Assembly: GCA_963735595.1 (NCBI GenBank)
Contig: CAVTLK010000001.1
Coordinates: 896,001 to 960,000 of the forward strand
DNA length: 64,000 bases
Reading direction: 5' to 3'
Origin: an uncultured delta proteobacterium
GTDB taxonomy: Bacteria; Desulfobacterota; Zymogenia; Zymogenales; Zymogenaceae
The notes under the pieces were generated by a model. The model searched no databases, was not told where the DNA came from, and saw only the letters and a list, made by a program, of their open reading frames with translations. Positions 1-26,673 of this stretch are shown piece by piece (the stretch's first letter is position 1; every line of letters starts with the position of its first letter). A program made the translations under genes and the position numbers.

Positions 1-26
1 TTTCACCACCCGCAATGACGGTTTTA

Positions 27-1014
27 TTATCTTACTTTCCCGTCTCCCATGATCTTTTTCAAACGCGCCAGGCCCTCCTCGGCCTCGGCGATGATGTCGG
101 CCATGATTTCCTTGATCGGCTTGACGTCCCCGATGAGGCCCATCCCCTCGCTCACCGAGATGATGCCCATGTCCACGTCGCCGCTGTTGTAGGCCTGTTT
201 GCCGAACTTGCCGGCGGCGTACGTCAGGATCTCCTCCAGCGTCGTGCCCCGCGCCTCGATCTCGCAGACGGTCTTTGCCGTGGCGTTGTCCATGACGCGC
301 ATCGGGTTCTTGATGGAGCGCATCACCACCGCCGTGTCGTTCTCGGTATGGCGAAACGATCCAGTCCTTGAAGTTCTGGTGAATCGGCGTCTCGGTAGCG
401 GCCAAAAACCGTGTCCCCATCAGGACGGCGTCGGCCCCCAGGGCCAGCGCCGCCAAGAGTCCCCTGCCGTCCACGATGCCGCCTGCGGCGATCACCGGGA
501 CCGACAGCGTGCGGGCGGCCTTGTTGATGAGCATCGTCGAGGCCACGTCGGCCATGCCCAGGTGCCCCCCGCCCTCGAACCCCACGATGACCACGGCGTC
601 CGCCCCGACGCTCTCGGCCTTTTTGGCAAAGCGGACCTGGGTGATCTTGTGGATGAGGGGGACCTTTGCGGCCTTGACCAGCGGGATGAACGGCTCGGGC
701 GAGCGGCCGGCCGTCTCGAAGGCGGCGACCTTTTCCTCGATGCCCATGCGGACGATGTCGAGGGTCTGTTCGCCGGGCGATACGTCCGGGAGCATCGAAA
801 TATTAATGCCGAACGGCCCGTCGGTCAGGTCTTTCGCGCGCCTGACTTCTTTGCGCAGCGCCTCGGTCGATTCGAACGAGGCCGACGGCAAAAAGCCCAT
901 GCCCCCGGCATCGGCCACGGCCGCGACCATCTCCGCGAACGACACCCAGTGCATCCCGCCCATGAGGATGGGGTACTTGATGTTGAGCATTTCGGTGATA
1001 CGGGTCTTTATCAT
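27..1014 (-). CDS. Nitronate monooxygenase / 2-nitropropane dioxygenase (FabK-like) family flavoprotein, one frameshift near 345
   Basis: Manual translation from ATG 1014: MIKTRITEMLNIKYPILMGGMHW...GFEGGGH...PVIAAGGIVDGRG...LALGADAVLMGTRF; C-terminus continues in ORF 27..329. Confidence 0.85.
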
Positions 1015-1091
1015 AACGCCTCCGGTGGATGATTGGGTGGACTGGGGGACGCAGTACATGGGTGTTAATTACCCCCGCCTCAATTACAAAG

Positions 1092-1146
1092 CTTAAAGTA
1101 TAACTTCATGCTTTAAGTATATAACAGGGGCGGGAGACGATGTCAA
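1092..1146 (-). promoter_or_regulatory. Putative sigma70 promoter with adjacent inverted repeat for the nitronate monooxygenase gene
   Basis: TTGACA on minus strand (1146-1141), TATATA 17 bp downstream; imperfect palindrome cttaaag..ctttaag at 1092-1117. Confidence 0.4.
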
Positions 1147-1287
1147 GCATTTTTTTGCTGCGCGGGAGAAATGGTGCGTATTTAGGCGCCCGACGGGGCG
1201 CCGGGGGGTGGTTTAAGTAAAAGCTTTACATTCGGAACTATTTATAGTATTATTTACATAATTTTGTACCTATTGGGGAGAAAAGCA

Positions 1288-1663
1288 ATGAAATCCGTTA
1301 AGCTGTTGCTCGTTTTGGCTTTTGTGGTCGTTTTCGCGGCGGCGTTCCTGGGCGGGTGCGAGAAGGCGGCCAAGATCAAGGACACGTACATCACCGAGGC
1401 CCAGACGACGATCGACGAGTATACGGGCAAGATCGACGAGCCTGATCGAGAAGGCGGCGATGCTGCCGAGCCCGGCCAAGGAAGAGGCAATCGTCAAGAT
1501 CGAGATGGCCAAGGCCAAGCTCGAAGAGGGCAAGGTCAAGCTGGAGGAGCTGAAAGGGGCCGAGGCGGCCAAGTGGACCGGGCTGATTGGCGAGCTCAAG
1601 ACCATCCTCGGCGACGCCGCCACGCTCTACAATGACGCGGTCACTGCCGTGGGTGGCATGTAG
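1288..1663 (+). CDS. Helical/coiled-coil lipoprotein, frameshift near 1440
   Basis: RBS GGGGAG; signal peptide with lipobox LGGC; frames 1264..1635 and 1322..1663 join as YTGKID/SLIEKAAMLPSPAKEEA. Confidence 0.7.
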
Positions 1664-1706
1664 ATTCGCCGCGGCCGATCGATTAAAGGTCGAAGTGCAG
1701 ACCTCA

Positions 1707-1738
1707 AAGGCGCCCCCGAAACGGGGCGTCTTTTTTTA
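1707..1738 (+). terminator. Rho-independent terminator
   Basis: ggcgcccc-cgaaac-ggggcgtc hairpin followed by T-run. Confidence 0.7.
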
Positions 1739-1815
1739 TGGGACGGGGGGCTTGACACGGGCGGCCCGTTCGGGCTATCCTCCGCTATCGTTTACCGCTA
1801 TGCGGAGACAGGCCC

Positions 1816-2205
1816 ATGAAACCTTCCAGACTGCCGATCGCTGCGGCCTGTGCCGCCCTGACCGTAATCCTCGCGGCGGCGCTGGCCTGCGGGACCGCGC
1901 GGGTCCCGGAGGCCGGCGACACCTTCATCGCCCAGTGCACGTGGACGCTTTCCGACTACGAGAAAAAGGCCGACGAGTTGGCCCTGAGGGCCGAGACGAT
2001 GCAGAGCCCGTTGCGGGAAGACGCGCAATACAAAGTATACCTGATGAACGTCAAGATCGAGGAAGGCAGGGCCAGGATCGAGGAATTCAAGACGGCACGC
2101 GGCGAACGCCGGAACGAGCTGATCGCCGAGGTCACGGCGATCATGAAGGAGGTCAAGGCGCTCTACGACGAGGCGGTGAAGGCCATGAAGGCGGTGGGGG
2201 AGTAG
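1816..2205 (+). CDS. Helical lipoprotein, distant paralog of 1288..1663
   Basis: Lipobox ALAC; shared pattern DT(Y/F)I...T..(E/D)Y..K.D.L...A....SP..E.A...K.EEG...LY..AV.A. Confidence 0.7.
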   Translation: MKPSRLPIAAACAALTVILAAALACGTARVPEAGDTFIAQCTWTLSDYEKKADELALRAETMQSPLREDAQYKVYLMNVKIEEGRARIEEFKTARGERRNELIAEVTAIMKEVKALYDEAVKAMKAVGE

Positions 2206-2343: not shown

Positions 2344-2482
2344 TTTCTTGTGAAGCAGCTATCACGGCCGGACGATTGGCGAATCGCGAATGCGGACTGT
2401 CGGATATACTGCGGCAGAATCCCGTTCTTTTTATGGAAAGAGGCGCGCATAGTCATATAGTATAAGCCCGTGGGGAAGCACT

Positions 2483-3667
2483 ATGGAACAAAGCCATAAA
2501 ACAAAGATAGGCCTTATTGGCGCGGGAAATATCTGCCGGGTGGGCCATGGCCCGGCCATCACGGCGGACGGGAGGGCTTATATCGCCGCAATCAGCGATC
2601 CCGATCCGCACAACAGGGACGTCTTCGCAAAAAAGTACCGGGTAAGCGGTGTGTATGAAGATCACCGCGCCATGCTTGAACGTGAAGACCTGGATGCCGT
2701 TGTCATATCGTCGCCCCCGTGGCTTCACGCGCGTCATGTCCAGGACGCCGCCGAAAAAGGCCTTCCTATCCTGTGCGAAAAACCGATGGCGACGACTCTT
2801 GAAGACTGCCGTACAATAATCGAGGCGGGCAAAAAACACAACGTCTATATTCTCATGGGCCACTGCAAGCGTTTTGAACCGGGGCACGAGAGAATCAGGG
2901 AATTGCTGACGAAAAACGCCCTGGGAAGGATCTTCCAGGTCAACGTCTTCTGGTACTTTTTCATTCCGGATTTTACCGCAGGCCGGCTCGGGGCTCTTGT
3001 CAGCAAGCTCAAGGAATACGGGTTCGATATTGTGCAGAAGTTCGGTTTCTGGAGGTACAGCGACCTCAGGGCCGGGGGAGGCGACTTTTTCGACCACGCG
3101 CCGCACTACATCGACATTATCCGGTTCTACGGAATGGAGATCGAACAGGTTTCGTGCGAAACCAAGCGGTGTTACCCGAACGCTCGCCCGTATGAGGACC
3201 TGGCCGTGGCCACGTTCAAGCTTTCCAACGGCGCAGTCTTTCTCTATGACAAGAACGTCATCCGCACGGGAAGCCCGTATGGTTTTGAGCGTGGATATAT
3301 ATACGGGGAAAAGGGAAAGATCGCTTTCAGGGCCCGTCACGCCTACAAGAAACGCCGGATGAAAGTAGGGATCTACCGTCTTTCCAACATACTCCATAAT
3401 TTTTATTACCCTGCCCTGCCCCCGTACGGCAGGGGAAATACGATGTTTTACCGGCAGATGAAATACTTCATCGATCAAGTCCGCAACGAGAATACGATGA
3501 AAAACGGTATCTCCGGGACGTGGGGCGCCACGCCGGAAGACTCGTACCTCACCATCGCCTGGACCCTTGCATCGTACAAGTCCGCCAGGGACGGGATAAA
3601 GATCACGCGCGAGAACCTGTTCGATGAGATAGAGACGTTTAAGACCGGTCTCCCTCATGACTGGTAA
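2483..3667 (+). CDS. Gfo/Idh/MocA family NAD(P)-dependent oxidoreductase
   Basis: IGLIGAGNI Rossmann motif, LCEKPMA, GGGDFFDHAPHYID. Confidence 0.9.
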   Translation: MEQSHKTKIGLIGAGNICRVGHGPAITADGRAYIAAISDPDPHNRDVFAKKYRVSGVYEDHRAMLEREDLDAVVISSPPWLHARHVQDAAEKGLPILCEKPMATTLEDCRTIIEAGKKHNVYILMGHCKRFEPGHERIRELLTKNALGRIFQVNVFWYFFIPDFTAGRLGALVSKLKEYGFDIVQKFGFWRYSDLRAGGGDFFDHAPHYIDIIRFYGMEIEQVSCETKRCYPNARPYEDLAVATFKLSNGAVFLYDKNVIRTGSPYGFERGYIYGEKGKIAFRARHAYKKRRMKVGIYRLSNILHNFYYPALPPYGRGNTMFYRQMKYFIDQVRNENTMKNGISGTWGATPEDSYLTIAWTLASYKSARDGIKITRENLFDEIETFKTGLPHDW

Positions 3668-3762
3668 TATCCGCCTTGCCTTGAAACAAAGAAGCCCGGT
3701 AACAGGCCTGACGTTTTGTGAAGTGACCGCGCCACGTAAAACTGCAACAAGGAGGTTGTCTG

Positions 3763-5156
3763 ATGGAAGGTAAGAAACTGTCTCTCGGCGTTAAAATCGG
3801 ATACGGCGTCTGCGATTTCGGAGGGAACCTATTTTTCACCGCTACTGCGTTCGTCCTGATGATATATATAACCGACACCATGGGGCTCAAAGCGGGCCTC
3901 GCGGGAACGGCGCTTTTCATCGGAAGGATATGGGACGCCTTTTACGACACCGTGATCGGCTATGTCTCGGACAGGACACGCACCAGGCTCGGCAGACGCA
4001 GGCCCTACATGCTGGCGGGGGCCGTGCCGCTTGGCATAGCGATGATCCTCATGTTCACGAACCCGGCGCTTTTCAAAGAAAACCTCAGCCAGGCCGAGCT
4101 CTTCATATTCACCACACTCGTCTATATATTCCTCTGCACGGCATATTCCACGGTCAACATCCCCTACTGCTCCATGACGCCTGAGCTCACCGACGACTAT
4201 CATGAAAGGACGTCGCTGACGGGATACCGGTTCGGGTTCGCCGCGATCGGCACCCTGATGGGCGCGGGCGCGGCCTGGCCGATAGTCGGCCTCCTGAAGG
4301 ACAAGAACATGGGCTTCATCCTCCTCGGGGCCGTCTACGGGGGAATAATGATGGTGACCGCCCTGACCACGGTGTTCACGACAAAAGAGCCGGTAGATCT
4401 GAAACCGGCCGGGTCCGTGGGCTTTTTCAAGACATACCTCGAGGTCTTCAAGAACAAGCCCTATCTTATCATACTGTCCACCTACATCCTCCACATCATC
4501 GCTATCACGATCGTGAGCCAGGTGGCCGCCTATTACTTCGACTACGTCCTTGCCGCGCGGAACGTCATGAACCCGAAAGACGAGATAACCAAGGCGATGC
4601 TGATACTGATCGGGACCGCCTTCCTGTTTATCCCGGTCAGCGTTTTTATGAGCAAGAAGCTCGGCAAGAAGCTCGTCTATGGGGCGGGTTTTTTCATCAT
4701 GTCGGCCGGGCTGGTGGCGCTGTTCATGTTCGGCGACAAACAACCGATCAGCTTTACGATGATCATGATGCTCATAATGGGCGTCGGGGCTCGGCCTGCT
4801 GTACGTACCGCCGTTCACGATAGTGGCCGACGCGATCGAATACGGTTATCTCCAGACGGGCGAACGGAGGGAAGGCTCGTTCTTCGGCATCTGGACATGG
4901 GGATTAAAGCTCGGCCAGGCGCTGGCGGCCCTTTCGATGGGCTGGATACTTCAGCTCATGGGTTACGTCAAAGGCGTCCTGCCGCAGGCCCCCAGCGCGG
5001 AGCTGGGCATCAGGCTGCTGCTGGGTCCGATCTCGGTTGCCGTATTCATATTGGCCGCAGTTGGTGCTTTATTTCTATCCGATAACGGAAAAACGGTATT
5101 CCGAGATACAGGGGCAGATAAAGGAGATGGAGGCGGCAAAGGCTAAAGCTAAATGA
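3763..5156 (+). CDS. MFS transporter, glycoside-pentoside-hexuronide (MelB-like) family, frameshifts near 4790 and 5080
   Basis: KIGYG..DFGGN, RIWDAF.D..IG..SDRTRTRLGRRRPY, ELTDDYHERTSL; C-terminal ADAIEYG...TGERREGSFFG in a second frame. Confidence 0.88.
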
Positions 5157-5470: not shown

Positions 5471-5983
5471 TTAGTCTTCTTGATGTACGAATTCCCTCGT
5501 AGCAGTCTGAATCTTTGCTAGGATTCTATTGCATATTTTTAATAAAGCATCGCCGCTATTGAGACCCATTTCTGCCAATCGCCTTTCCGGTTCGCGACGA
5601 GTACTGATTGCCTCATTAATTGAAAGGACCTCCTCCCCGAAAGCCTCAAAAGCGGTGTCAAATTCTTGAACCTCGTTCTCGAATTCCTTACCGAAAAGGC
5701 CTAAGACATATCTTAGTTGTTCCTGCGCCATATCATAATTAGGTGTTGTTTCTGGCGGGAATCCTTTAATAATCCGTATGAAATTCGTTCGAGTTGTTTG
5801 TGTGAATATCACAATTTTCCTTATTATCTGAGCCGCTTCTTCTAACTTCTCTCTTCTATAATTCTTTTTCACAGTCGTCGAAATAAAGACATCGTAGTTG
5901 ATTTTCATCCCCAAAATTGAAAGCAGGAATCCCAAGATAGTTCCAATACTAGTAAATATTAAGTTAATAGCCCATGTATTCAT
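5471..5983 (-). CDS. Hypothetical protein, N-terminal TM helix then helical domain (AT-rich island)
   Basis: 170-aa ORF with hydrophobic N-terminus LIFTSIGTILGFLLSILGM. Confidence 0.65.
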   Translation of the reverse strand: MNTWAINLIFTSIGTILGFLLSILGMKINYDVFISTTVKKNYRREKLEEAAQIIRKIVIFTQTTRTNFIRIIKGFPPETTPNYDMAQEQLRYVLGLFGKEFENEVQEFDTAFEAFGEEVLSINEAISTRREPERRLAEMGLNSGDALLKICNRILAKIQTATREFVHQED

Positions 5984-6122
5984 GTTTGATCATACCCATC
6001 TAGTATTAGAATTAATATAATGTAAATTCGTCTTAATTTCGCTCGGCAGCTCGGATAGGACTAGCAAACCGGGAAGCGCTTGGCTTTCATAAATCATTTT
6101 ATGAGCAAAGGAGGAGATGCTT

Positions 6123-7718
6123 TCACCTAAAATTTAGGAATAGAGAGCTGAAAATCTCTGGTAGGTAATTAACCTTGATTTTATCTGAAATTGTGTAGAT
6201 CTTATACTGCAATTCTTTAACTTCGAGAGTGCCATTACATTCATAATAGTCCGATAAGAGCTTGATTAGAGCATCGCCATTGAATTCGGAAATGCCTTTA
6301 GCTTTAAAGAATTCGAGTAAGAGGAATATTGAACCTGCGATCCTAGTTGCTTTCATATCCCAGTTACTGACTCCTATATCTATAATATCGTACGCTAATT
6401 CAATAGCGTTCTTCGAGAAGTTTGGATTTAGTATCGTGTTGTCTTTGTTGATCTTAATATCAAAGCAATATTTCGCGGTCTGATAGATTTTCGAATTCTC
6501 ACCTTCGTAGTATTCAAGTATACTAATCGCCTCCTTATGGCTGGTTGGAATAATTCTATGGTCACAGCACGAAGAAAAAGCAAGATCTAAACCTGCTCTT
6601 ATAAAGCTGTAGACTAATTTTAAGTCTCTAGGCAACGAAGGCTTTTCTTTTGATAGCATAATAATCTTTAAAAGAAGAACCCTCAGTCTAAAATGCCACG
6701 TATCATATCCATTTAAATCAGTAAAGTCGGCCGCAATCATCGGATAATGGGAACGGATTTCTATGCCATCTATTCTCATTGCGAGGGTCAAGAAATTTGC
6801 TAAATATATTATATCCGCATCTAGTATAGTTCTCTCTGTATAGCATCTAAATCCTATATGAGTTCTAATAATAGATGAATTCCTAAGGATTTTTAGCCTT
6901 GAAATCCAGTCAAGTATTCCTCTCTTATCTTTTTCCTTCAACGGCTCCTTAGAAATAAAGAGTAAATCATAATCGCTTAGGATTAGGGTGCTTCCATTGT
7001 ATTGTACGTAACTTAATTCATTTGTTACGGCGCTTCCCATTAGATAAGTACTTATGATATTCCCATCCAGTAATTCCCTCGCTGAATGTATGTCACCGTA
7101 AACTATATCATTAACTAATTGTGATTTGTTCATTGGAGTCCATACAACTGAAGTATCAACCATATGATCAAGAATAATCTTCATTAAACGTGACTCTTGA
7201 TCATTACTCTTCTCTATTCTTGTCTCGAAACTCTTAGAACCACGATAATAGCTAATTATGTTTGGAAAATCCACTTCATCTATTCTATCTAGTTTCTCAA
7301 ATTCGTTTTCGATCTTTAGGAATACATCATAGTCAGATACGCCGTTATAAAATTTTCCATATCTATTTAAAACCGCTTTCTCTTTTAGGCTCCTTTCGGC
7401 GTTACAGAATATAAGAATGATGGGGATATTATATTCATAACAAATCCTTCGTAGTTTCTCTCTCCATTTTCTTTTATAGAAAGACGCATCAACTACAACA
7501 TTTTCCCCGTTATCTAAATACTCTTTAAGTAAAAAGAAGAGTTCGTTATAAGTAGACTCTGTACTATGTTCGCCGAAATCAAAAGTAGTATTCTCTTCGC
7601 GAATTCTATCTGTTCCAAGGTATCTTAATCCTAAGAGATACGAGAGATTTCTGGCAAGTGTAGTTTTGCCAGTACCTATATAGCCAATAACAAGAATGCA
7701 GTATTTTTCTGTATACAT
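6123..7718 (-). CDS. Fusion of P-loop nucleotide kinase (AAA_33-like), Pol-beta-superfamily nucleotidyltransferase and C-terminal helical bundle
   Basis: Walker A GYIGTGKTT, TDRIRE, VVVDASF; NTase motif LMGSAVTNE...SDYDLLFI; helical C-terminus with PTSHKEAI. Confidence 0.75.
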   Translation of the reverse strand: MYTEKYCILVIGYIGTGKTTLARNLSYLLGLRYLGTDRIREENTTFDFGEHSTESTYNELFFLLKEYLDNGENVVVDASFYKRKWREKLRRICYEYNIPIILIFCNAERSLKEKAVLNRYGKFYNGVSDYDVFLKIENEFEKLDRIDEVDFPNIISYYRGSKSFETRIEKSNDQESRLMKIILDHMVDTSVVWTPMNKSQLVNDIVYGDIHSARELLDGNIISTYLMGSAVTNELSYVQYNGSTLILSDYDLLFISKEPLKEKDKRGILDWISRLKILRNSSIIRTHIGFRCYTERTILDADIIYLANFLTLAMRIDGIEIRSHYPMIAADFTDLNGYDTWHFRLRVLLLKIIMLSKEKPSLPRDLKLVYSFIRAGLDLAFSSCCDHRIIPTSHKEAISILEYYEGENSKIYQTAKYCFDIKINKDNTILNPNFSKNAIELAYDIIDIGVSNWDMKATRIAGSIFLLLEFFKAKGISEFNGDALIKLLSDYYECNGTLEVKELQYKIYTISDKIKVNYLPEIFSSLFLNFR

Positions 7719-7749
7719 GTCGCTATTTAGTAAAAGAACTATTTTGCTA

Positions 7750-10044
7750 TTATCTAGTCACGATGGTGCCTTTGTAAACAGTGGCTCCACGGTTCTTCCA
7801 GTTTTCGATAAGCTTGCCGGTCTTCTCGGTCTCTTTAATTCTGACCTCATCTATTATAAGCTCTTGGCCCCGTCTTCGTGAATCGAAATCCAGATATAGA
7901 TCTATTGGATAAGCGGCAAAACTTAAGTCCTTGCGTGTAAAGGGAATTAGCTTAAAGGAATTACCAATCAGTGGTGGTGTTGTTCCTGATAGAGTACCAG
8001 AAACAAGATTCATAACGTTTACCCCGGGATCGTCCTTAAATGCTTTACCAAATCCATCTTCTTCGTGTTCATGACCTGATAACACTACATAGAAACTGTT
8101 TTCTTTCAGCTCATCTGTAAACCGGTCTTTCTCTCGAAGTAACGGTCCATGAACGACCATTATTTTTAGGAAATCGGTATTCGAATATTTCTTTATGTCT
8201 TCCTCCAAGTGCGCCCATATATTTTCAACTAGCGTTTCATGTCGTGTATGCTTGTAAACCTGGTTATTCCAATCGATTGTTTGTACTGTGTTTAGAGATA
8301 CGATTAATAACTTCATTTCGGGAATTTCGTGTATCGTATACTGCTTCTTTTTGTTAAAAAGATTTAAGGACAAAATCTCGTGTTCACCATAATGGTAGAA
8401 ATCGTAAACAAACTTCTCATAAGGAGAAAACCGATACTGTGATAATTCGCCACTAATCTCATCTTCTTTAACAACGTAAACTCTTTCTGCTTCCCCTTTA
8501 CCATCAATAAAAACCCTATTCGCCTTTAGTGCCTTAGTAAGATTCTCAGCCCCTTTTCCCGATTTTAAGTCTCTGAGCTGTACTGGATCTAGATACCTGG
8601 CTTTCGAAATAGTCCAGTTCATGTCATGATTACCCGGTGAAAATATTACTCTATTAAGGCTAATGTTGAAAGATTTCGCGATATCCAGTATATGTGTTTT
8701 TACTTGATTAAATTCAACTTCACTCGCTTTAGACGAGATATCCCCACTAATTACAAGTATATTTGGCTGTATTTCATGTTTGCGCATGAAATCGAGTAGA
8801 CCTCTTTTAAAATGAGCCAATATTTGTATTTGTACTTCGTCACCGAACTGTATATCTGACAAATGAAGAATTATTGGTTCCTTTTCCCCGATGAAAGGCG
8901 ATTCCTTAACTACGCCGGTCAGAGTTCCTGGTTTCGATAGAACTAACGATAGTACTTCGCTTTCACTAGACGGATATAGGTCCTTTAACATACTGATACA
9001 AACCGCGGTCGTATAGACCTTGTTGAAAGTTGAATATTCCCCGGATGCAGGTGGGTCGGATTTTAAATGTCCATTGCCTGAAGCTACGAAATTTGACTTT
9101 TGATTAATAATGAATTCAATTGCTGTATCGCCTCCACCTAAAATAGCTTTTCTCTGCAATTCCTCCAAGATTCGTTGTAGATCAGGATTTCTCTGAATAT
9201 ATTCGCATCTTGAATAGATATTAAGAGCATAGATATTATAAATGTTAGTAACGCTACTTTGCTCGTTCCAACAGAAATTTCCGTTTGGCATGGATATATG
9301 CGAATTAATATATTGTAAGCATTCGCGAATAAAGGTATCCGTATTTATCCCGAGAGACGAAAGCAAATCCTTATATTTATCATATAAAGTAGAGCTATAT
9401 AGTAGCGTTAAACAAAGCAACGCATATGATACTCTTGTTGATAGAGTATTGCGTAAGAACGATCTAGTTGCTTTTATAAAAAGCCCTAGCAAAACCGCTA
9501 TTTCTTCTTCACTAAGACCTATAGTATTTCTTGCTCTGAGCATATTGGAAAGAATGTGATAGGGTGCTTCGTGTTCAATAGACTTTAAGAATTTCTCAGA
9601 GTTCTTTTCGTCAACTACGTTATAAGCCTTTAATGCATCACTACTGTTACGAATATAAGTGTGAATATCGGCGATAACTTTCTGATAGAACGCTTCGATT
9701 TCAGCCGAATCAGGATCTCTCTGTTTTAAATCTAGCAGTACACCGAGAATTGGAAAAGACTTCTTCCTTGGCATCTTATCATAGTTCCGGCTTAGCCATT
9801 GTATCGGATACGCTAATAATACGGAGTTTAGAGAAAAATTGAAACTCACCAAAACCTCGATAACTTTTTGCGTAGTTGTCCAAATATCCTGTTCTTCTGA
9901 TCCGTGGAGGGTCCAATCATATTCGTTGCCCGTCAGTTCAGAACCTCCCCAAAGTCCGGGGTACACGCCTCTGCAATTTTGTTTTCTTAGTACCCAAACC
10001 AGGAAATCTGACACCAATAGGAGCGTCCTTTCTTTTGTAATCAT
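7750..10044 (-). CDS. N-terminal helical (alpha/alpha-toroid-like) domain fused to a C-terminal calcineurin-like metallophosphoesterase
   Basis: MPE motifs HLSDIQFG, VISGDIS, PGNHD, VVHGP, SGHEH; start ATG 10044 with GAGGAG RBS; N-terminal QW-like motifs are inferred. Confidence 0.75.
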   Translation of the reverse strand: MITKERTLLLVSDFLVWVLRKQNCRGVYPGLWGGSELTGNEYDWTLHGSEEQDIWTTTQKVIEVLVSFNFSLNSVLLAYPIQWLSRNYDKMPRKKSFPILGVLLDLKQRDPDSAEIEAFYQKVIADIHTYIRNSSDALKAYNVVDEKNSEKFLKSIEHEAPYHILSNMLRARNTIGLSEEEIAVLLGLFIKATRSFLRNTLSTRVSYALLCLTLLYSSTLYDKYKDLLSSLGINTDTFIRECLQYINSHISMPNGNFCWNEQSSVTNIYNIYALNIYSRCEYIQRNPDLQRILEELQRKAILGGGDTAIEFIINQKSNFVASGNGHLKSDPPASGEYSTFNKVYTTAVCISMLKDLYPSSESEVLSLVLSKPGTLTGVVKESPFIGEKEPIILHLSDIQFGDEVQIQILAHFKRGLLDFMRKHEIQPNILVISGDISSKASEVEFNQVKTHILDIAKSFNISLNRVIFSPGNHDMNWTISKARYLDPVQLRDLKSGKGAENLTKALKANRVFIDGKGEAERVYVVKEDEISGELSQYRFSPYEKFVYDFYHYGEHEILSLNLFNKKKQYTIHEIPEMKLLIVSLNTVQTIDWNNQVYKHTRHETLVENIWAHLEEDIKKYSNTDFLKIMVVHGPLLREKDRFTDELKENSFYVVLSGHEHEEDGFGKAFKDDPGVNVMNLVSGTLSGTTPPLIGNSFKLIPFTRKDLSFAAYPIDLYLDFDSRRRGQELIIDEVRIKETEKTGKLIENWKNRGATVYKGTIVTR

Positions 10045-10156
10045 AAATATATTCTCCTCACTTTTACGAGCTAAATCGATTAGTAGTATTAGTGGCAAAA
10101 TACGTCGCGTCTTTTGTTGTCACCTTCTCACCCAATCCCCTCCCTCCAACCTATCC

Positions 10157-10462
10157 CTACCTAAACGTTTTCCCCGCCCGGAACCGCTTGTTCATCCGCC
10201 ATACCTCGTATATCATGACCACCGCCAGCGCGAGCAGCCCGATCTCATCGCCCCGGCCGAACCGTTCGCCGGCCAATGCTACGACGCAGCCGGCAAAGAC
10301 AATGAAGATCGCCAGCGCCACGAGCACCGCGTTGCGCGTCCGCGCTTTCACCGACCTCATCAGCAGCCGGAACAGCGCCACGGCGGCCACGATGATAATC
10401 GCGTACCGCAACACCATCCCCGCGTGCGACCCGAGCTCATACGGTGTCAAATCGTCTTCCAT
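10157..10462 (-). CDS. Small membrane protein (3 predicted TM helices)
   Basis: ORF 10157..10510, likely start MEDDLTPY; hydrophobic segments. Confidence 0.55.
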   Translation of the reverse strand: MEDDLTPYELGSHAGMVLRYAIIIVAAVALFRLLMRSVKARTRNAVLVALAIFIVFAGCVVALAGERFGRGDEIGLLALAVVMIYEVWRMNKRFRAGKTFR

Positions 10463-10730
10463 CGTAAGGCCTGCGAGGGGATAAGTCTTTCGTTGCCGCT
10501 TCCCGGACAAACCGGGACCGAAAGAGGCTTATCCTCCGATTACTGCAATTATATTTGCTGCCTGGATACTGGATCTGCACGAGCACCCTCCACCCGCGAT
10601 CCGCAAGAAAACTTTAGAGATGATATTTGTTAAATAAGCATATATGGAATATTTTGTCAAGGGATATGAATTCTGCGGAGAATTGTAGGGATTTAAAAGA
10701 TTCGGTGGCCGAAAGGGGGCCTACTCGATA

Positions 10731-10926
10731 GTCAGGGGATTGCCACGCCGCCCTTACGGGCGGCTCGCAATGACAATGATGATCGTCATTGCGAGGAGGG
10801 CGTAGCCCGACGAAGCAATCTCGTGTCCGGCAAACGGAACGGACGTACTAACCACGAACGTACAAAGACACGAAGGGGAAAAGAGAGAATGTTCTTTTCT
10901 TTGTGCCTTTGTGTCTTCGTGGTGAA
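10731..10926. repeat. Composite repeat cluster: two GTCATTGCGAG...GCAATC palindromes plus an ACCACGAA/CACAAAG inverted-repeat element
   Basis: 10731-10774 is nearly identical to 11331-11374; 10784-10825 is identical to 17729-17770; 10851-10923 resembles 17796-17869. Confidence 0.85.
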
Positions 10927-11129: not shown

Positions 11130-11330
11130 GACATGCCTCGTTCAGAATAGATTCGTAAAGGAGTATCCGGGAAAGGGGTTACACCTCCGCCCGGCCCGTA
11201 TCGGTTGGGGTGTAGGACGCTTCCCTTTTCCCTTGACCCGACTATATTCAAAACCGTTACGCCGGTCAACTAAATAAATATACAGGTATTTTATGGAATC
11301 GGGCCGGTAACGTATCGTCCCTTGGTGACA

Positions 11331-11374
11331 GTCAGGGGATTGCCACGCCGCCCTTTCGGGCGGCTCGCAATGAC
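11331..11374. repeat. GTCATTGCGAG-family palindromic element (reverse orientation)
   Basis: gtcaggggattgccacgccgccctttcgggcggctcgcaatgac, 1 mismatch versus 10731-10774. Confidence 0.85.
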
Positions 11375-11405
11375 GGTGGAAACGAGGTCGCAACGGCCCC
11401 CGCCC

Positions 11406-11771
11406 TTAATCCCAGTTCCCTATTTCCTCGAAGATAAGCGCCATCTTCTTGCACTTGGGGCACAGGAAATTGGTATCCGGGAGCTTAAAGAACTCGTCCT
11501 TATCGGCGATTCTCCAGACGAACAGGTAATCGTACCGTTTCTTTCCCGAAGCATCCTGGACGGAAGGGTCGTCGTAGAAGGTGACTTTCGCTTCGCATCC
11601 GGGGCAGCGGGCGGCGTCCCCGGCCATGTAGTTGCGCACGAGGAACTCGTTGCAGTGGAGGCAGATCGCCGGCGCGTTGCACGTCTCCATGAAGTTCACG
11701 AACCCGGCGCCGACGTAGATATCGCCCGTGTCAAAACCGCACTTACACAGGCCGCGCAATATGCTTCCCAT
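11406..11771 (-). CDS. Multi-Cys zinc-ribbon protein (CxC plus 3 CxxC)
   Basis: CKCG, CLHC, CPGC, CPKC; close paralog at 13837..14205. Confidence 0.75.
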   Translation of the reverse strand: MGSILRGLCKCGFDTGDIYVGAGFVNFMETCNAPAICLHCNEFLVRNYMAGDAARCPGCEAKVTFYDDPSVQDASGKKRYDYLFVWRIADKDEFFKLPDTNFLCPKCKKMALIFEEIGNWD

Positions 11772-13836: not shown

Positions 13837-14205
13837 ATGGGAAACATATTAAGGGGCCTCTGCCAGTGCGGTTTCGATACAACCGAAATCTTCGTCGGCG
13901 GCGGTTTTACGAATTTCATGGACACGTGTAACGCTCCGGCGATTTGCCTGCACTGTAATGAACTCCTGGTAAGGAATTACGTGGATCGGAATACCGCGCG
14001 ATGCCCCAGGTGCCGCAATACGGTAACCTTTTATGACGACCCCTCAGTCGAAGGTCCCTGGACGGAAACCGGGGAATACGACTACCTCGTTGCGTTGAGA
14101 ATCGCCGATACGGGCAAATTCTTCAAACTGGCGGACACCGAGCACCTTTGCCCGAAGTGTAAAAACATGACGCTTATATTTGAAGATAAAGGGCGCTGGG
14201 ATTAG
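13837..14205 (+). CDS. Multi-Cys zinc-ribbon protein, paralog of 11406..11771
   Basis: Same Cys pattern, shared segments CNAPAICLHCNE and VTFYDDPSV, C-terminal WD. Confidence 0.75.
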   Translation: MGNILRGLCQCGFDTTEIFVGGGFTNFMDTCNAPAICLHCNELLVRNYVDRNTARCPRCRNTVTFYDDPSVEGPWTETGEYDYLVALRIADTGKFFKLADTEHLCPKCKNMTLIFEDKGRWD

Positions 14206-15126: not shown

Positions 15127-15390
15127 CTACGGCCTTCTTTTCCATTTGCGGATCCCCATGATCCCTTGCGCGATAAAGTTGGCACCGGCAAACAGGAACA
15201 GTGCGGTGCCCAGTATCGCCGGCAACAGGTCGTTGTTCTTCCAGACGAGATACGACGACGCCAACAGCGCCGCTCCGAGGCACATGAAGAAGACGGTGAG
15301 GAATTTCCTCAGCAGTCCCATAGCAAGCCGGTAGTTCCGGTTTCTACCCCGCGGCGGTTCGGGGGTCATGGCGGGAAAATCCGGCATCAT
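15127..15390 (-). CDS. Small 2-TM membrane protein
   Basis: Paralog of 15570..15833 (MTP.PP..RN..Y; SYLVW.NND). Confidence 0.65.
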   Translation of the reverse strand: MMPDFPAMTPEPPRGRNRNYRLAMGLLRKFLTVFFMCLGAALLASSYLVWKNNDLLPAILGTALFLFAGANFIAQGIMGIRKWKRRP

Positions 15391-15569: not shown

Positions 15570-15833
15570 CTACGTCCCTCTTCTCCATTTCGTTAGCGAC
15601 TTTACACCCATGGTGATGAAGCCGGCCCCGCCGACGAGAAACAGCGCCGAGCCCGCCATCTTCTCAACCACGTCGTTATTCTCCCAGACAAGATACGATA
15701 ACAGCACCAGAGCGGTGCCGACGCAAAAGTATACGACGGCGACAGATATCCCCCATATCTTCTGAAGCAACGGATACCTTCGGTTCCGGCTCGGTGGCGG
15801 TCCGGGGGTCATATCGGGAGAGTCCTGCATCAT
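15570..15833 (-). CDS. Small 2-TM membrane protein
   Basis: Tandem paralog of 15127..15390. Confidence 0.65.
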   Translation of the reverse strand: MMQDSPDMTPGPPPSRNRRYPLLQKIWGISVAVVYFCVGTALVLLSYLVWENNDVVEKMAGSALFLVGGAGFITMGVKSLTKWRRGT

Positions 15834-17545: not shown

Positions 17546-17728
17546 CTCCCCTGTCTTGGCCCTCTTCGTAAATATGACCTGACAGTACGGGCCCATTGTA
17601 TGCCACCCGGTCAATTTTTTCAAGACAAGAGTTGCCGGCGGTCCGTCCTACGGATACTCGTAGGAATCGCCCTTACGCCCCGTCGGGGCACGATTTTTAA
17701 CAATGTCGCCTTTGGCGACGATTATTAT

Positions 17729-17869
17729 CGTCATTGCGAGGAGGGCGTAGCCCGACGAAGCAATCTCGTGCCCGGCGATCGGGGGTAAGGAATTAACCAC
17801 GAAGGCACGAAGACACAAAGGGAGAGAAAGAAAAAGCAGCCTTTCTTTGTGCCTTTGTGCCTTTGTGGT
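17729..17869. repeat. Second copy of the composite GTCATTGCGAG plus ACCACGAAG element
   Basis: 42-nt identity to 10784-10825, then accacgaaggcacgaagacacaaag / ctttgtgcctttgtgcctttgtggt inverted repeat. Confidence 0.85.
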
Positions 17870-17892
17870 AAAATAGTGCCGTTTAAGAAGAC

Positions 17893-23285: not shown

Positions 23286-23798
23286 GTGGAGCGTTCATTA
23301 ATACTCGGTGTAATTTCATTAGTCTCTGGATTTATTTCAATTGCGATATCGTATGTCGCGTGGCGTTTAGCTAAAAAGACAGATACTTTAGGTAGAAAAA
23401 CAGATGATTTAGCTCGAGAGACAGATAAGGTTATCCGTGCGATTGCGAACTTGAAATATGATGAAAAACTAGCGGTTATGGCCATACATCTAGCAGACGC
23501 GTTACGAATTCCGGAAACGGATCTAACGGATGGGGATAAAAAACAATTGATACTATTAATCGAAAGCGTCGAATATGATCTTAGCGCAGTTACTAGCCTA
23601 ATAAGCTATGGTTCGTCTTTAAAAAAGACGAAATTGATAAGCGAGTTTATTAAACCAATTGTCGATAAGTTCCTCTCAATTAACTTAGAGTTTGGTGCGG
23701 CTAACGCGGTAGGACGAATCATTGAAATGGCACTCAGTTATAAAATAGATGCTGACGAGTTTAAAGATTTTCAACGAAGGCTTAGACGAGTCGAGTAG
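23286..23798 (+). CDS. Hypothetical protein, N-terminal TM plus heptad repeats (AT-rich island)
   Basis: Hydrophobic N-terminus then KKTDTLG-RKTDDLA-RETDKVI; TTGACA-17-TATACA at 23204-23232. Confidence 0.6.
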   Translation: MERSLILGVISLVSGFISIAISYVAWRLAKKTDTLGRKTDDLARETDKVIRAIANLKYDEKLAVMAIHLADALRIPETDLTDGDKKQLILLIESVEYDLSAVTSLISYGSSLKKTKLISEFIKPIVDKFLSINLEFGAANAVGRIIEMALSYKIDADEFKDFQRRLRRVE

Positions 23799-23998: not shown

Positions 23999-26673
23999 AT
24001 GGATATATTTGACGAAATATATGGATGGATCAGTGCGCAGCCTAATTGGCTACGGGAACGCGGCTCGCCGTCTTGCTTCCAAAGAGAGCCTTTCCGATGC
24101 CGATTATCAAGAGATACTTTTAATGCTTGAGTCAGACAATGATGTGCCGATTGAACCAGATAAGGTAGTACCGACTCCAGTACCAATCAAAAGAGATGAT
24201 TTTGTCATCCCGAAGTCGGGAGGTCCTAAAGTTGTACTAGATAGGCTTTACAATGTGAGAAATGTGAATGCTCTAGTTCCGGATCAGACTATCCATTTTG
24301 CGTTGGAAGGTATAACTATTATTTACGGAGAACACGCGATCCGGGAAATCTGGATACTCCCGGGTACTAAAGAGAGCTTGTCAGTCAAAGGATGGGTCAC
24401 GAAAAGATACTTCCTGATGTCTATAAAAAAGATGAGAAAAAGGAACGTGCGACGGCAGCTTTTGATTTTGAGGTAGACGGTGAAAAAAGAACCGAGGAAT
24501 TGATAGATGAGGTGCGCTATCCCGAGAGTCTTAAGGAGATTGCCGTTTTTGACTCGAAGTGTGCACGTCTGTTTGTCGATAAAAATAATAGGATAAGTTA
24601 TATACCATATGGATTAGACATATTTCAGCGTCTGGCAAACGTTTGCGATGAAGTGAAGAAACGCATTGAAGGGAAAAAGGGAGTCTGTCGAGGAAATACC
24701 GGACGCGTTTTCTACTACTTACCGAGAAACTAGAGTGGGACACTTTATTTCAAGCCTCGATTGGAGGACGGAGACTAAAGATATCATAGAACTAGCATTG
24801 CTTAATCAGACAGAATTAACAAGGTTAAGTAAACTATTAGAGGTCAAAAGGTCTGAGAATCCGAGTATTGTATCGGATAACCTGGGTCGATTGGGAAGCA
24901 GAATCGAACGATTGATGGCATTGATTGATCTGGCGGACAATACGCTGTCTGAAGAATCGACCGCTTTATTAAAAGAAAAACAGACTAAGGCGCAAGTTGC
25001 TAGGAGCGTTGTAGAAACAGCTTCAAAAGAAGTTCTTAAAAGAGAAATCTTTGCCAGGCGTTGGGACTGACCCTTGGAAACAGATGTTTTATGCAGCCCA
25101 GAGGTTTTCTCAACATGTGGCGTACCCGGGGAAAGAGTTCCCTTTTACAGAGGGTGATAGCCGTTGCGTTCTATGCCAACAGACCTTAGATGTTGATGCT
25201 AAGGTTCGTTTAGAAAGGTTCTGGGATTTTATTATTAGTGACGTTCAAAAGCAATCTGAGGAAAGCACGGCTGAGTTCGAGGCCAAGCGCAATACACTGA
25301 ATAATGTACCTTTAAGACCGGAATCTGGCGATCCAGAGATCCTCGATGAAATAGGGATCATAGATCCGGGACTTAAAAAGCTAACTCTCACCTATATCCA
25401 AAGCATAGAACCTAGGGTTAAGGGAATCAAGAAAGCCTGCGATACAGGTGAATGGATCAACTTGCCGACCCTGCCAGAATCCCCTACCGTTGCGCTGAAA
25501 TCCGCTTCGGAAGTACTTAAAGAACAGATTAAAGAACTCTTGACGTTCATTAATCAAAGAATTGCAGTTGAAGCAGAGTTACTCGATTTGGAGGCGAGGC
25601 AGTATTTATCTAAAGAGAAAACTACTGTATTAAGAATACTAAAGCAAATGAAAATTAAACATTATTGTGAGGAATGTACGAAGTGCCTAAATACTAGAAG
25701 TTTAACAGATACCCAGAACCACCTAATGGCAAAGGCAGTTACCAGTAAATTAAGGGAAAAATTATCAAAAGAGCTTAAGAAGCTCAACGTGGACTATTTA
25801 GGACTAGATGTAGCAAATAAAGGCGAAAAGGGAAGCACATTAATTGGACTACAAATGTCGGAGGGCAATCCGAAGAGCGTATATCTCTCTGATATACTTA
25901 GCGAAGGAGAGCAGAGAGCGGTAGCTATAGCTTCTTTTTTAGCTGAGATCGAGGCGACCGGTTTCCAGAGTGGAATTGTCTTTGATGACCCAGTTTCATC
26001 GCTTGATCACAGGTTTAGAGAACGCGTTGCAAAAAGGCTTGTGGAGGAGGCAAAAAAGAGGCAAGTAATAGTGTTTACTCACGACATAGTTTTTTTGCTT
26101 GAGATTGTGGAGTGCGCGAATAGGGAGAGGGTGCCAATAATGCCCAGACGATCGAGCGTAGTATTGTTACTATAGGCAGATGTATCGACGATATACTTGG
26201 AAAGTAAGAAAACAACGGCTAGGATAACGGATTTGCACTCCCTACTAAGAAACGCACGCGACGCTTCAAATTTGGGCCTTTCTGAGCGGTATTCGGAAAT
26301 TGTTAAAACCTTTTACGATAGACTGAGGACGACGTGGGAAAGGCTTGTCGAAGAAAATCTGTTTCGCAAGACGATTCTGAGATTTAGAGACAGCGTTGAT
26401 ATAAAAAATCTTGACGGAGTTGAAGTGAACGACGACGACTTTAGAACAATTTACTGGGGATGGGATAATAGCTCAAAAAAGATAGCTAGCCATGATAAGG
26501 CGGCGGGGGCCAAACCAGACTTGCCTCCGATCAGCGATCTGGAGAATGATCTTCAGGACATCGAGAAATATTTCGATGATCTAAAGAAAAAAATAAACGA
26601 AGTGGAACGAAGGGAAAAATGCGTAAGCCCGATAATCGCGGAACACAAAAAAGGTAGGGGGCCAAGTCTTTAA
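23999..26673 (+). CDS. RloC-like Rad50/SMC ABC-ATPase with zinc hook and putative HEPN-like C-terminus; about 5-6 frameshifts (errors or pseudogene)
   Basis: Reconstructed MDIFDEIYGW..QPNWLR.AARRL; Walker A IIYGE../SGKSGY; CVLCQQ hook; LSEGEQRA signature; VFDDPVSSLD; VFTHD; tail YDRLRTTWERLVEE...ASHD. Confidence 0.75.

Follow-up and report, generated by a model that had tools for sequence, protein, structure and literature searches.

Several recently described defence systems place the gene of a regulator after the gene of an effector. In type I Metis (MisA-MisB, the same as PUA-Cal-HAD and DS-9), the first gene joins an N-terminal domain to a C-terminal calcineurin-like phosphoesterase and the second encodes a small-molecule phospho-enzyme; the Metis literature (10.1101/2025.11.05.686725, 10.64898/2026.01.15.699771, PMC13092281) describes an enzyme converting NAD+ to NMN and AMP, in a second study the conversion of dNDP to dNMP, and a MisA that defends alone, without MisB. 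The same order is reported for CloA/CloB of Clover (PMC12265719) and HalA/HalB of Hailong (PMC13434031), two-gene systems in which a nucleotidyltransferase (NTase) restrains the effector, and MisB, CloB and HalB are reported to remove the trigger or supply an inhibitor for their own effectors. Here we describe a gene pair in 64,000 nucleotides of an uncultured delta proteobacterium of the Zymogenaceae (contig CAVTLK010000001.1, positions 896,001 to 960,000; hereafter the window). Gene A (P0002; window positions 7750-10044, minus strand) encodes a candidate sensor-effector of 764 aa with a helical N-terminal domain and a calcineurin-like metallophosphoesterase (MPE), and gene B (P0001; 6123-7718, minus strand) encodes a candidate regulator of 531 aa in which a P-loop kinase is fused to an NTase of the AadA/aminoglycoside nucleotidyltransferase (ANT) fold with a remodelled active site. 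We tentatively read the pair as a horizontally acquired conflict module, probably directed against phages, in which gene A would be the effector and gene B its restraint.

Both genes are intact, co-oriented open reading frames (ORFs) 31 bp apart, as had been stated in the original prediction, and the calcineurin-like phosphoesterase that it placed in the longer gene is confirmed. This domain (residues ~386-720; 7885-8889, minus strand) matches PF00149 at E 1.8e-8 and carries all five metal motifs (D397-x-Q399, G434-D435, G471-N-H-D474, H632 and G657-H-E-H660), with Gln399 replacing the motif-I His. It appears to be of the conflict-effector type. The sole NCBIfam match of gene A is NF053862 DS9_1, the DS-9 anti-phage phosphoesterase (E 1.7e-11), which scores 43.7 bits where the cut-off is 420 and covers residues 386-482 only, and the PADLOC 'Effector' model PDLC00736 matches at E 1.4e-7. 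A plasmid tblastn search with gene A returned seven records at 23-28% identity, confined to the phosphoesterase domain, and the four distinct ones that were opened all showed conflict-type architectures (4/4): WD40-Roc-MPE-NACHT near a MoxR gene; MPE-SAVED flanked by MoxR and a cGAS/DncV-like NTase; an MPE with an HSP90-like ATPase adjoining an ABC three-component system; and TPR-MPE. The MPE-SAVED locus (L027:5174-10297, a Nostoc punctiforme plasmid) joins a MoxR-type system to CBASS-type signalling, and the TPR-MPE gene (L026:4750-7100) appears as two ORFs, with the break inside the catalytic domain. A profile of the four relatives scored gene A at 98 bits and 20 other phosphoesterases of the host at no more than 37. 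In a tree, gene A and the four relatives grouped at 96/96 with two of the 20 host phosphoesterases inside, a grouping that is partly circular because the relatives had been picked by their similarity to gene A. The conflict-type affinity that had been proposed is thus carried by the architectures of the plasmid relatives and by the DS-9 and PADLOC effector matches.

Gene A shares with type I Metis the calcineurin-like phosphoesterase and its metal motifs, apart from the Gln at the motif-I His, and weakly matches the DS-9A model. It differs at the N-terminus, where Metis has a PUA-like sensor with a Trp-rich motif and gene A a helical, toroid-like domain, and in the adjacent gene, which is a HAD phosphatase in Metis and a kinase-NTase here. 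The N-terminal ~385 aa of gene A (8890-10044, minus strand) had no Pfam match. An Atlas comparison gave a score of 0.87 (165/256 features), which counts as a lead on that tool's own scale, and every row listed was a toroid family of the squalene-cyclase/prenyltransferase-like alpha/alpha kind. Our own hidden Markov model (HMM) of the toroid repeat scored gene A at 5.1 bits, a value reached by 0/1000 shuffles, and ranked the whole protein 20th of 3097 genome ORFs; hhalign matched a toroid over residues 236-311 at E 0.0015, with a score of 31.8 against 22.8 for the best of 60 shuffles. A single-sequence model, with a predicted local distance difference test score (pLDDT) of 38, showed a helical N-terminal domain; in fold searches with it, the rows listed were helical matches of a generic kind without a toroid, an outcome that is uninformative. 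Of the ~370-aa toroid domain that had been predicted, the helical character stands, on a poor model, and the alpha/alpha toroid is a lead. A plasmid search with the toroid part gave nothing, and full-length relatives of gene A were absent from the plasmids, phages and viral contigs searched.

The kinase of gene B (residues 4-186; 7161-7709, minus strand) matches AAA_33 at E 1.6e-14 and has a PFK-2/polynucleotide-kinase/PSTK-like fold, so the P-loop kinase of the original prediction is retained. Its motifs are GYIGTGKT at residues 12-19 (Walker A K18), D37-x-x-R40, a motif that has a role in Pnk, and VVVDASF at 74-80. The VIA Z scores were 19.1 to PFKFB2, 15.1 to Clostridium Pnk (4gp6) and 14.2 to PSTK. 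The following region, a Pol-beta NTase domain (residues 198-325) and a HEPN-like helical domain (335-457), together 6348-7127 on the minus strand, was assigned by structure match, using a model of mean pLDDT 70 built on a four-sequence alignment. Pfam models of the Pol-beta fold reached only E 0.03-0.2; the structure nevertheless shows the fold and bears out the earlier assignment, with VIA Z scores of 14.1 to AadA (5luh, over 224 residues), 13.9 to ANT-3,9 (7uy4) and 11.2 to HalB (9dbh), and 11.9 to HEPN (2hsb). The transferase motifs are G228-S229 and D249-Y-D251; a second SDYD, at 128-131, falls in the kinase and outside the transferase.

The likeness of the kinase to Pnk and PSTK, its DxxR motif and a weak TIGR04075 match limited to the kinase region could also suit RNA or DNA end processing, in which kinase, phosphoesterase and transferase would heal or mark broken ends as bacterial Pnkp does. 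We consider this highly improbable, since the block holds no ligase-type adenylyltransferase or Hen1 gene, the transferase has an ANT fold with a damaged site, and the phosphoesterase groups with nucleotide-pool effectors. Membership of Pnkp-Hen1 itself was rejected.

The relatives of the transferase lead to a different setting. When the C-terminal 357 residues of gene B were run against all 1.84 billion representatives, three proteins were returned: P0004 (34%) and P0005 (30%), both kinase-fused, and the stand-alone P0006. Other searches added more stand-alone members. Residues 170-531 gave nothing in a 5.8-billion set, the NTase part gave nothing in plasmids, and of the 55, 171 and 79 pattern matches that alignment A1 gave in viral contigs, metagenome contigs and genome contigs, none was confirmed. 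Sixteen of 20 metagenome pattern matches proved to be members of the transferase family, none of them kinase-fused (0/16); the four non-members (L029, L031, L033 and L035) were excluded. Together with L023 and L049 they make 18 stand-alone loci, equivalent to about 15 independent ones given the near-duplicates L036/L043 and L034/L038/L047. Wherever enough flank was present, these loci held glycosyltransferase, flippase or Wzy-type genes. A phosphodiesterase of the alkaline-phosphatase family (NPP/AlkP) lay directly downstream of the transferase in 14/18, and three of the remaining four break off less than 250 bp away. In 7/18 there was a kinase nearby, either a uridine kinase or a PfkB kinase. 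The loci listed for this NTase, phosphodiesterase and kinase trio are L023, L028, L030, L032, L036-L041, L043-L046 and L049, and the literature searched yielded no paper describing it. By homology the gene B transferase belongs to this unnamed polysaccharide-locus NTase family, with which it shares GSxxxxE[LF]S, SDY[DE], RL, R..LD and K.

Genes A and B together repeat the kinase-NTase-phosphoesterase activity set of these loci, with kinase and phosphoesterase of other families and without the nearby glycan genes and NPP/AlkP phosphodiesterase. This suggests another possibility, namely that kinase, transferase and phosphoesterase are successive enzymes of a small-molecule pathway that activates, salvages or inactivates a nucleoside, a sugar or a compound resembling an antibiotic, in a rebuilt form of the polysaccharide-locus trio. 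The frequency of phosphodiesterase and kinase partners speaks for such a pathway, as do the closest solved folds, which are aminoglycoside adenylyltransferases and the PFK-2 sugar kinase domain, and the sugar-type major facilitator superfamily (MFS) transporter and oxidoreductase genes next door. We nonetheless regard it as unlikely: the nearest GT4 gene is about 139 kb away, there is no PF01663 match near genes A and B (902-906 kb of the contig), the gene B kinase has no match among the partner kinases of the stand-alone loci, the phosphoesterase appears conflict-type and is outside the partner family, and the transporter/oxidoreductase block resembles the host in G+C and lies on the opposite strand. 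The third carboxylate, essential for adenylation by AadA, is moreover Gly in all three fused proteins.

This last point comes from an alignment of 22 sequences, three kinase-fused and 19 stand-alone, in which the fused proteins form their own clade across a long branch (100/100). The Arg of GSxxR is present in 19/19 stand-alone proteins and is Thr or Ala in the fused ones (T232 in gene B), and the third-strand Asp/Glu is present in 18/19 and is Gly in 3/3 fused (G289 in gene B); the search pattern had left out both columns. Kept in the fused proteins are G228, S229, E234, D249, D251, R374, D378 and K422. Aligned with ANT(9) (6sxj, E 1.9e-5), the family profile places the third-acid column at the Glu of 'YIEL', counted as residue 86. 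In AadA (PMC6065190), both Mg ions are bound by Asp47, Asp49 and Glu87; Glu87 also serves as the catalytic base, and the E87Q mutant still binds ATP but cannot adenylate. Judging from these residues, gene B probably binds NTP, and it is doubtful that it carries out ordinary O-nucleotidylation of hydroxyl groups. Its predicted role as a writer of phosphate and nucleoside monophosphate (NMP) is therefore upheld for the two domains and put in doubt for NMP addition, because the third carboxylate and the GSxxR Arg are missing. Two readings are left: gene B may transfer NMP onto the phosphate made by its kinase, which could proceed without the third acid because no general base is needed, or it may be a nucleotide-binding pseudo-enzyme. 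HINPO, in which a P-loop protein carries a fused Pol-beta NTase that is inactive, is a predicted precedent (10.64898/2026.10.19.760177).

The original prediction had matched the pair to no named system, and the comparisons agree. In Clover the effector is an HD-family dGTPase, and in gene A it is a PF00149 domain. HalB of Hailong resembles gene B in fold less closely than AadA does, and gene B differs in its fused kinase and in lacking the third carboxylate; gene A has no channel like the transmembrane HalA, and the only transmembrane neighbour, a 170-aa protein, occurs without an NTase in the genome G007. PADLOC 2.0 is older than Hailong. With AadA/ANT(3'')(9) and ANT(9), gene B shares the NTase plus helical two-domain fold, GS, DxD and the Arg and Lys of the helical domain, at 12-17% identity and with the N-terminal kinase as an addition. 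A canonical ANT was rejected, as the Glu87/86 column is Gly289 and the ANT_9 model gave 16 bits against a cut-off of 340. CBASS was rejected on the absence of any CD-NTase model match in PADLOC, Pfam and NCBIfam, the best folds being ANT enzymes, and MNT-HEPN because the HEPN-like bundle is a fused helical domain as in ANT, with no separate HEPN gene. APE is a predicted conflict system with an alpha/alpha toroid in the same source as HINPO; ParA, ORC/CDC6 and a separate HEPN gene are absent here, and the toroid of gene A would be fused to the effector. By analogy the pair might follow a Metis- or Clover-like logic as a member of neither, a view we hold with some reserve. A description of the pair was not found in the literature searched, a search whose coverage ended short of the paper defining Calcineurin-CE, where such a toroid fusion may be listed.

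The block was acquired recently, is restricted to this lineage and lies within a mosaic region. The two genes have a G+C of 0.367; the genome has a mean of 0.571 (standard deviation 0.046), and all 7217 of its sliding 4.5-kb windows exceed the block at 5471-10100 (0.369). At third codon positions (G+C3) the genes have 0.34 and 0.36, and three flanking genes 0.69-0.87. The contrast with the flanks that had been noted is therefore extreme for the whole genome. Genes A and B are absent from the syntenic site of the congener G003, where window 1-2187 and 10109-10464 sit on one contig 2.05 kb apart, separated by unrelated DNA of lower G+C. Gene A was not found among 60 relatives, and the gene B transferase profile matched one of 300 genomes of the phylum, a stand-alone member, and none of nine in the same family. 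The reading of horizontal acquisition rests on composition, the empty syntenic site and the absence from relatives. Public data from two studies (four runs, one possibly the window's own source) gave 32 listed contig pieces: the eight lying within 5471-10100 (1726 bases) equal the window exactly, and the 24 flank pieces differ from it at 4-48 positions each. No listed piece spans the junction between the genes, and a single study supplied those that lie in gene A or gene B. The identical pieces thus back the sequence of the block and not the coupling of its genes.

A third co-oriented ORF, which the original prediction had left out, lies 139 bp downstream of gene B (5471-5983, minus strand) with the same low G+C; it encodes 170 aa with one N-terminal transmembrane helix. 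It is probably a passenger, since a 28% identical homologue in G007 stands between housekeeping genes without gene A or gene B; for that reason it was rejected as a core part, and a plasmid search gave no homologue of it.

Such a region also raises the possibility of chance neighbours, in which gene A would be a conflict effector working on its own and gene B an orphan with no connection to it, both collected in a hypervariable patch of small cassettes. The 2 kb of other DNA at the G003 site, the location of window 2457-5141 on a different G003 contig, the occurrence of the third ORF without A or B, the different habitats of the catalytic-domain relatives (conflict loci for one, glycan loci for the other) and the reported defence by MisA without a partner all fit this account. 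What counts against it is the 31-bp AT-rich spacer without a REP-like repeat, the matching G+C3, and the kinase, transferase and phosphoesterase activities that repeat the set of the stand-alone family. Gene A is preceded by a Shine-Dalgarno-like GAGGAG (about 10053-10058, minus strand, read from the sequence), and an upstream TTG start would give 782 aa; gene B has no clear ribosome-binding site, and this weak signal fits one transcript. On balance we think chance adjacency somewhat unlikely.

Under the conflict-module reading, the two-metal phosphoesterase of gene A would cleave an essential nucleotide at a pyrophosphate-type bond; candidate reactions are those reported for the Metis/PUA-Cal enzyme, NAD+ to NMN and AMP or dNDP to dNMP. 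The N-terminal helical toroid would gate the phosphoesterase in place of the PUA, SAVED, TPR or NACHT of related proteins. The kinase of gene B would phosphorylate a small molecule resembling a nucleoside or sugar at one of its hydroxyls, and the AadA-fold domain would bind NTP and either join NMP to the new phosphate or merely bind nucleotide. Gene B might remove a trigger or supply an inhibitory ligand, and gene A would be held until infection upsets the balance. A more specific version is a long shot: the NTase family was recruited from polysaccharide loci into immunity, the kinase fusion and rebuilt site couple NMP to a phosphorylated molecule, and the pyrophosphate-linked signal so made locks a toroid-gated, NAD+- or dNTP-destroying phosphoesterase until phage removes the signal.

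Several observations weigh against a coupled defence module. The pair was seen at one locus only, and a search for full-length relatives of gene A returned only itself among the top 8000 scored candidates of 420-1337 aa. None of the 18 polysaccharide loci holds a gene-A homologue, a conflict-type phosphoesterase or a toroid. In P0005 the Walker A motif (P-loop) and DxxR have decayed and the NTase aspartates remain, so that kinase activity is not constant in the fused proteins (decayed in one of three). The toroid assignment is weak, given the missing Pfam match and the HMM rank of 20/3097; the region is a mosaic in which the third ORF travels alone; and the locus is not a defence island, because only one other clear defence candidate, 14 kb away and broken, was found among the 61 window ORFs scanned.

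That candidate, in a second AT-rich patch, is a PADLOC PDC-S06 gene for a large ABC-type ATPase (24009-26673, plus strand) that is broken up over five ORFs in a row. Ahead of it lies an ORF of 170 aa (23286-23798) that has a hydrophobic N-terminus and no sequence kinship with the ORF at 5471-5983. On its other side, gene A adjoins a gene for a 117-aa membrane protein. The oxidoreductase gene (2483-3667) and the MFS transporter gene (3763-5146, plus strand) are located elsewhere in G003; the transporter has a frameshift near 4790-4820, its G003 copy (460 aa) is intact, and an 83% inverted repeat (2314-2343/5205-5234) flanks the two genes in the window. REP-like palindromic repeats occur at 10727-10889, 11327-11378 and 17717-17873, and the segment 10785-10822 matches many unrelated contigs of public runs. 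Two multi-zinc-ribbon proteins of 121-122 aa, about 75% alike, are encoded in inverted orientation (11406-11771, minus; 13837-14205, plus), and a tandem pair of genes (15127-15390 and 15570-15833, minus) encodes membrane proteins of 87 aa. A promoter scan stayed at chance level (15 found, 14.1 expected), no tRNA was found in the window, Rfam gave no match in 1-30000, and the repeats listed include no terminal repeats at the block edges.

Rarity limits the reach of these findings: the fused proteins number three, and the full locus was seen once. If genes A and B are coupled, the calcineurin-type defences that deplete nucleotides, characterised only recently, would gain a toroid gate and a kinase/remodelled-ANT regulator. 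Apart from defence, an uncharacterised polysaccharide-locus NTase family and its derived kinase-fused clade, in which the active site has changed, present a compact case of enzyme repurposing.

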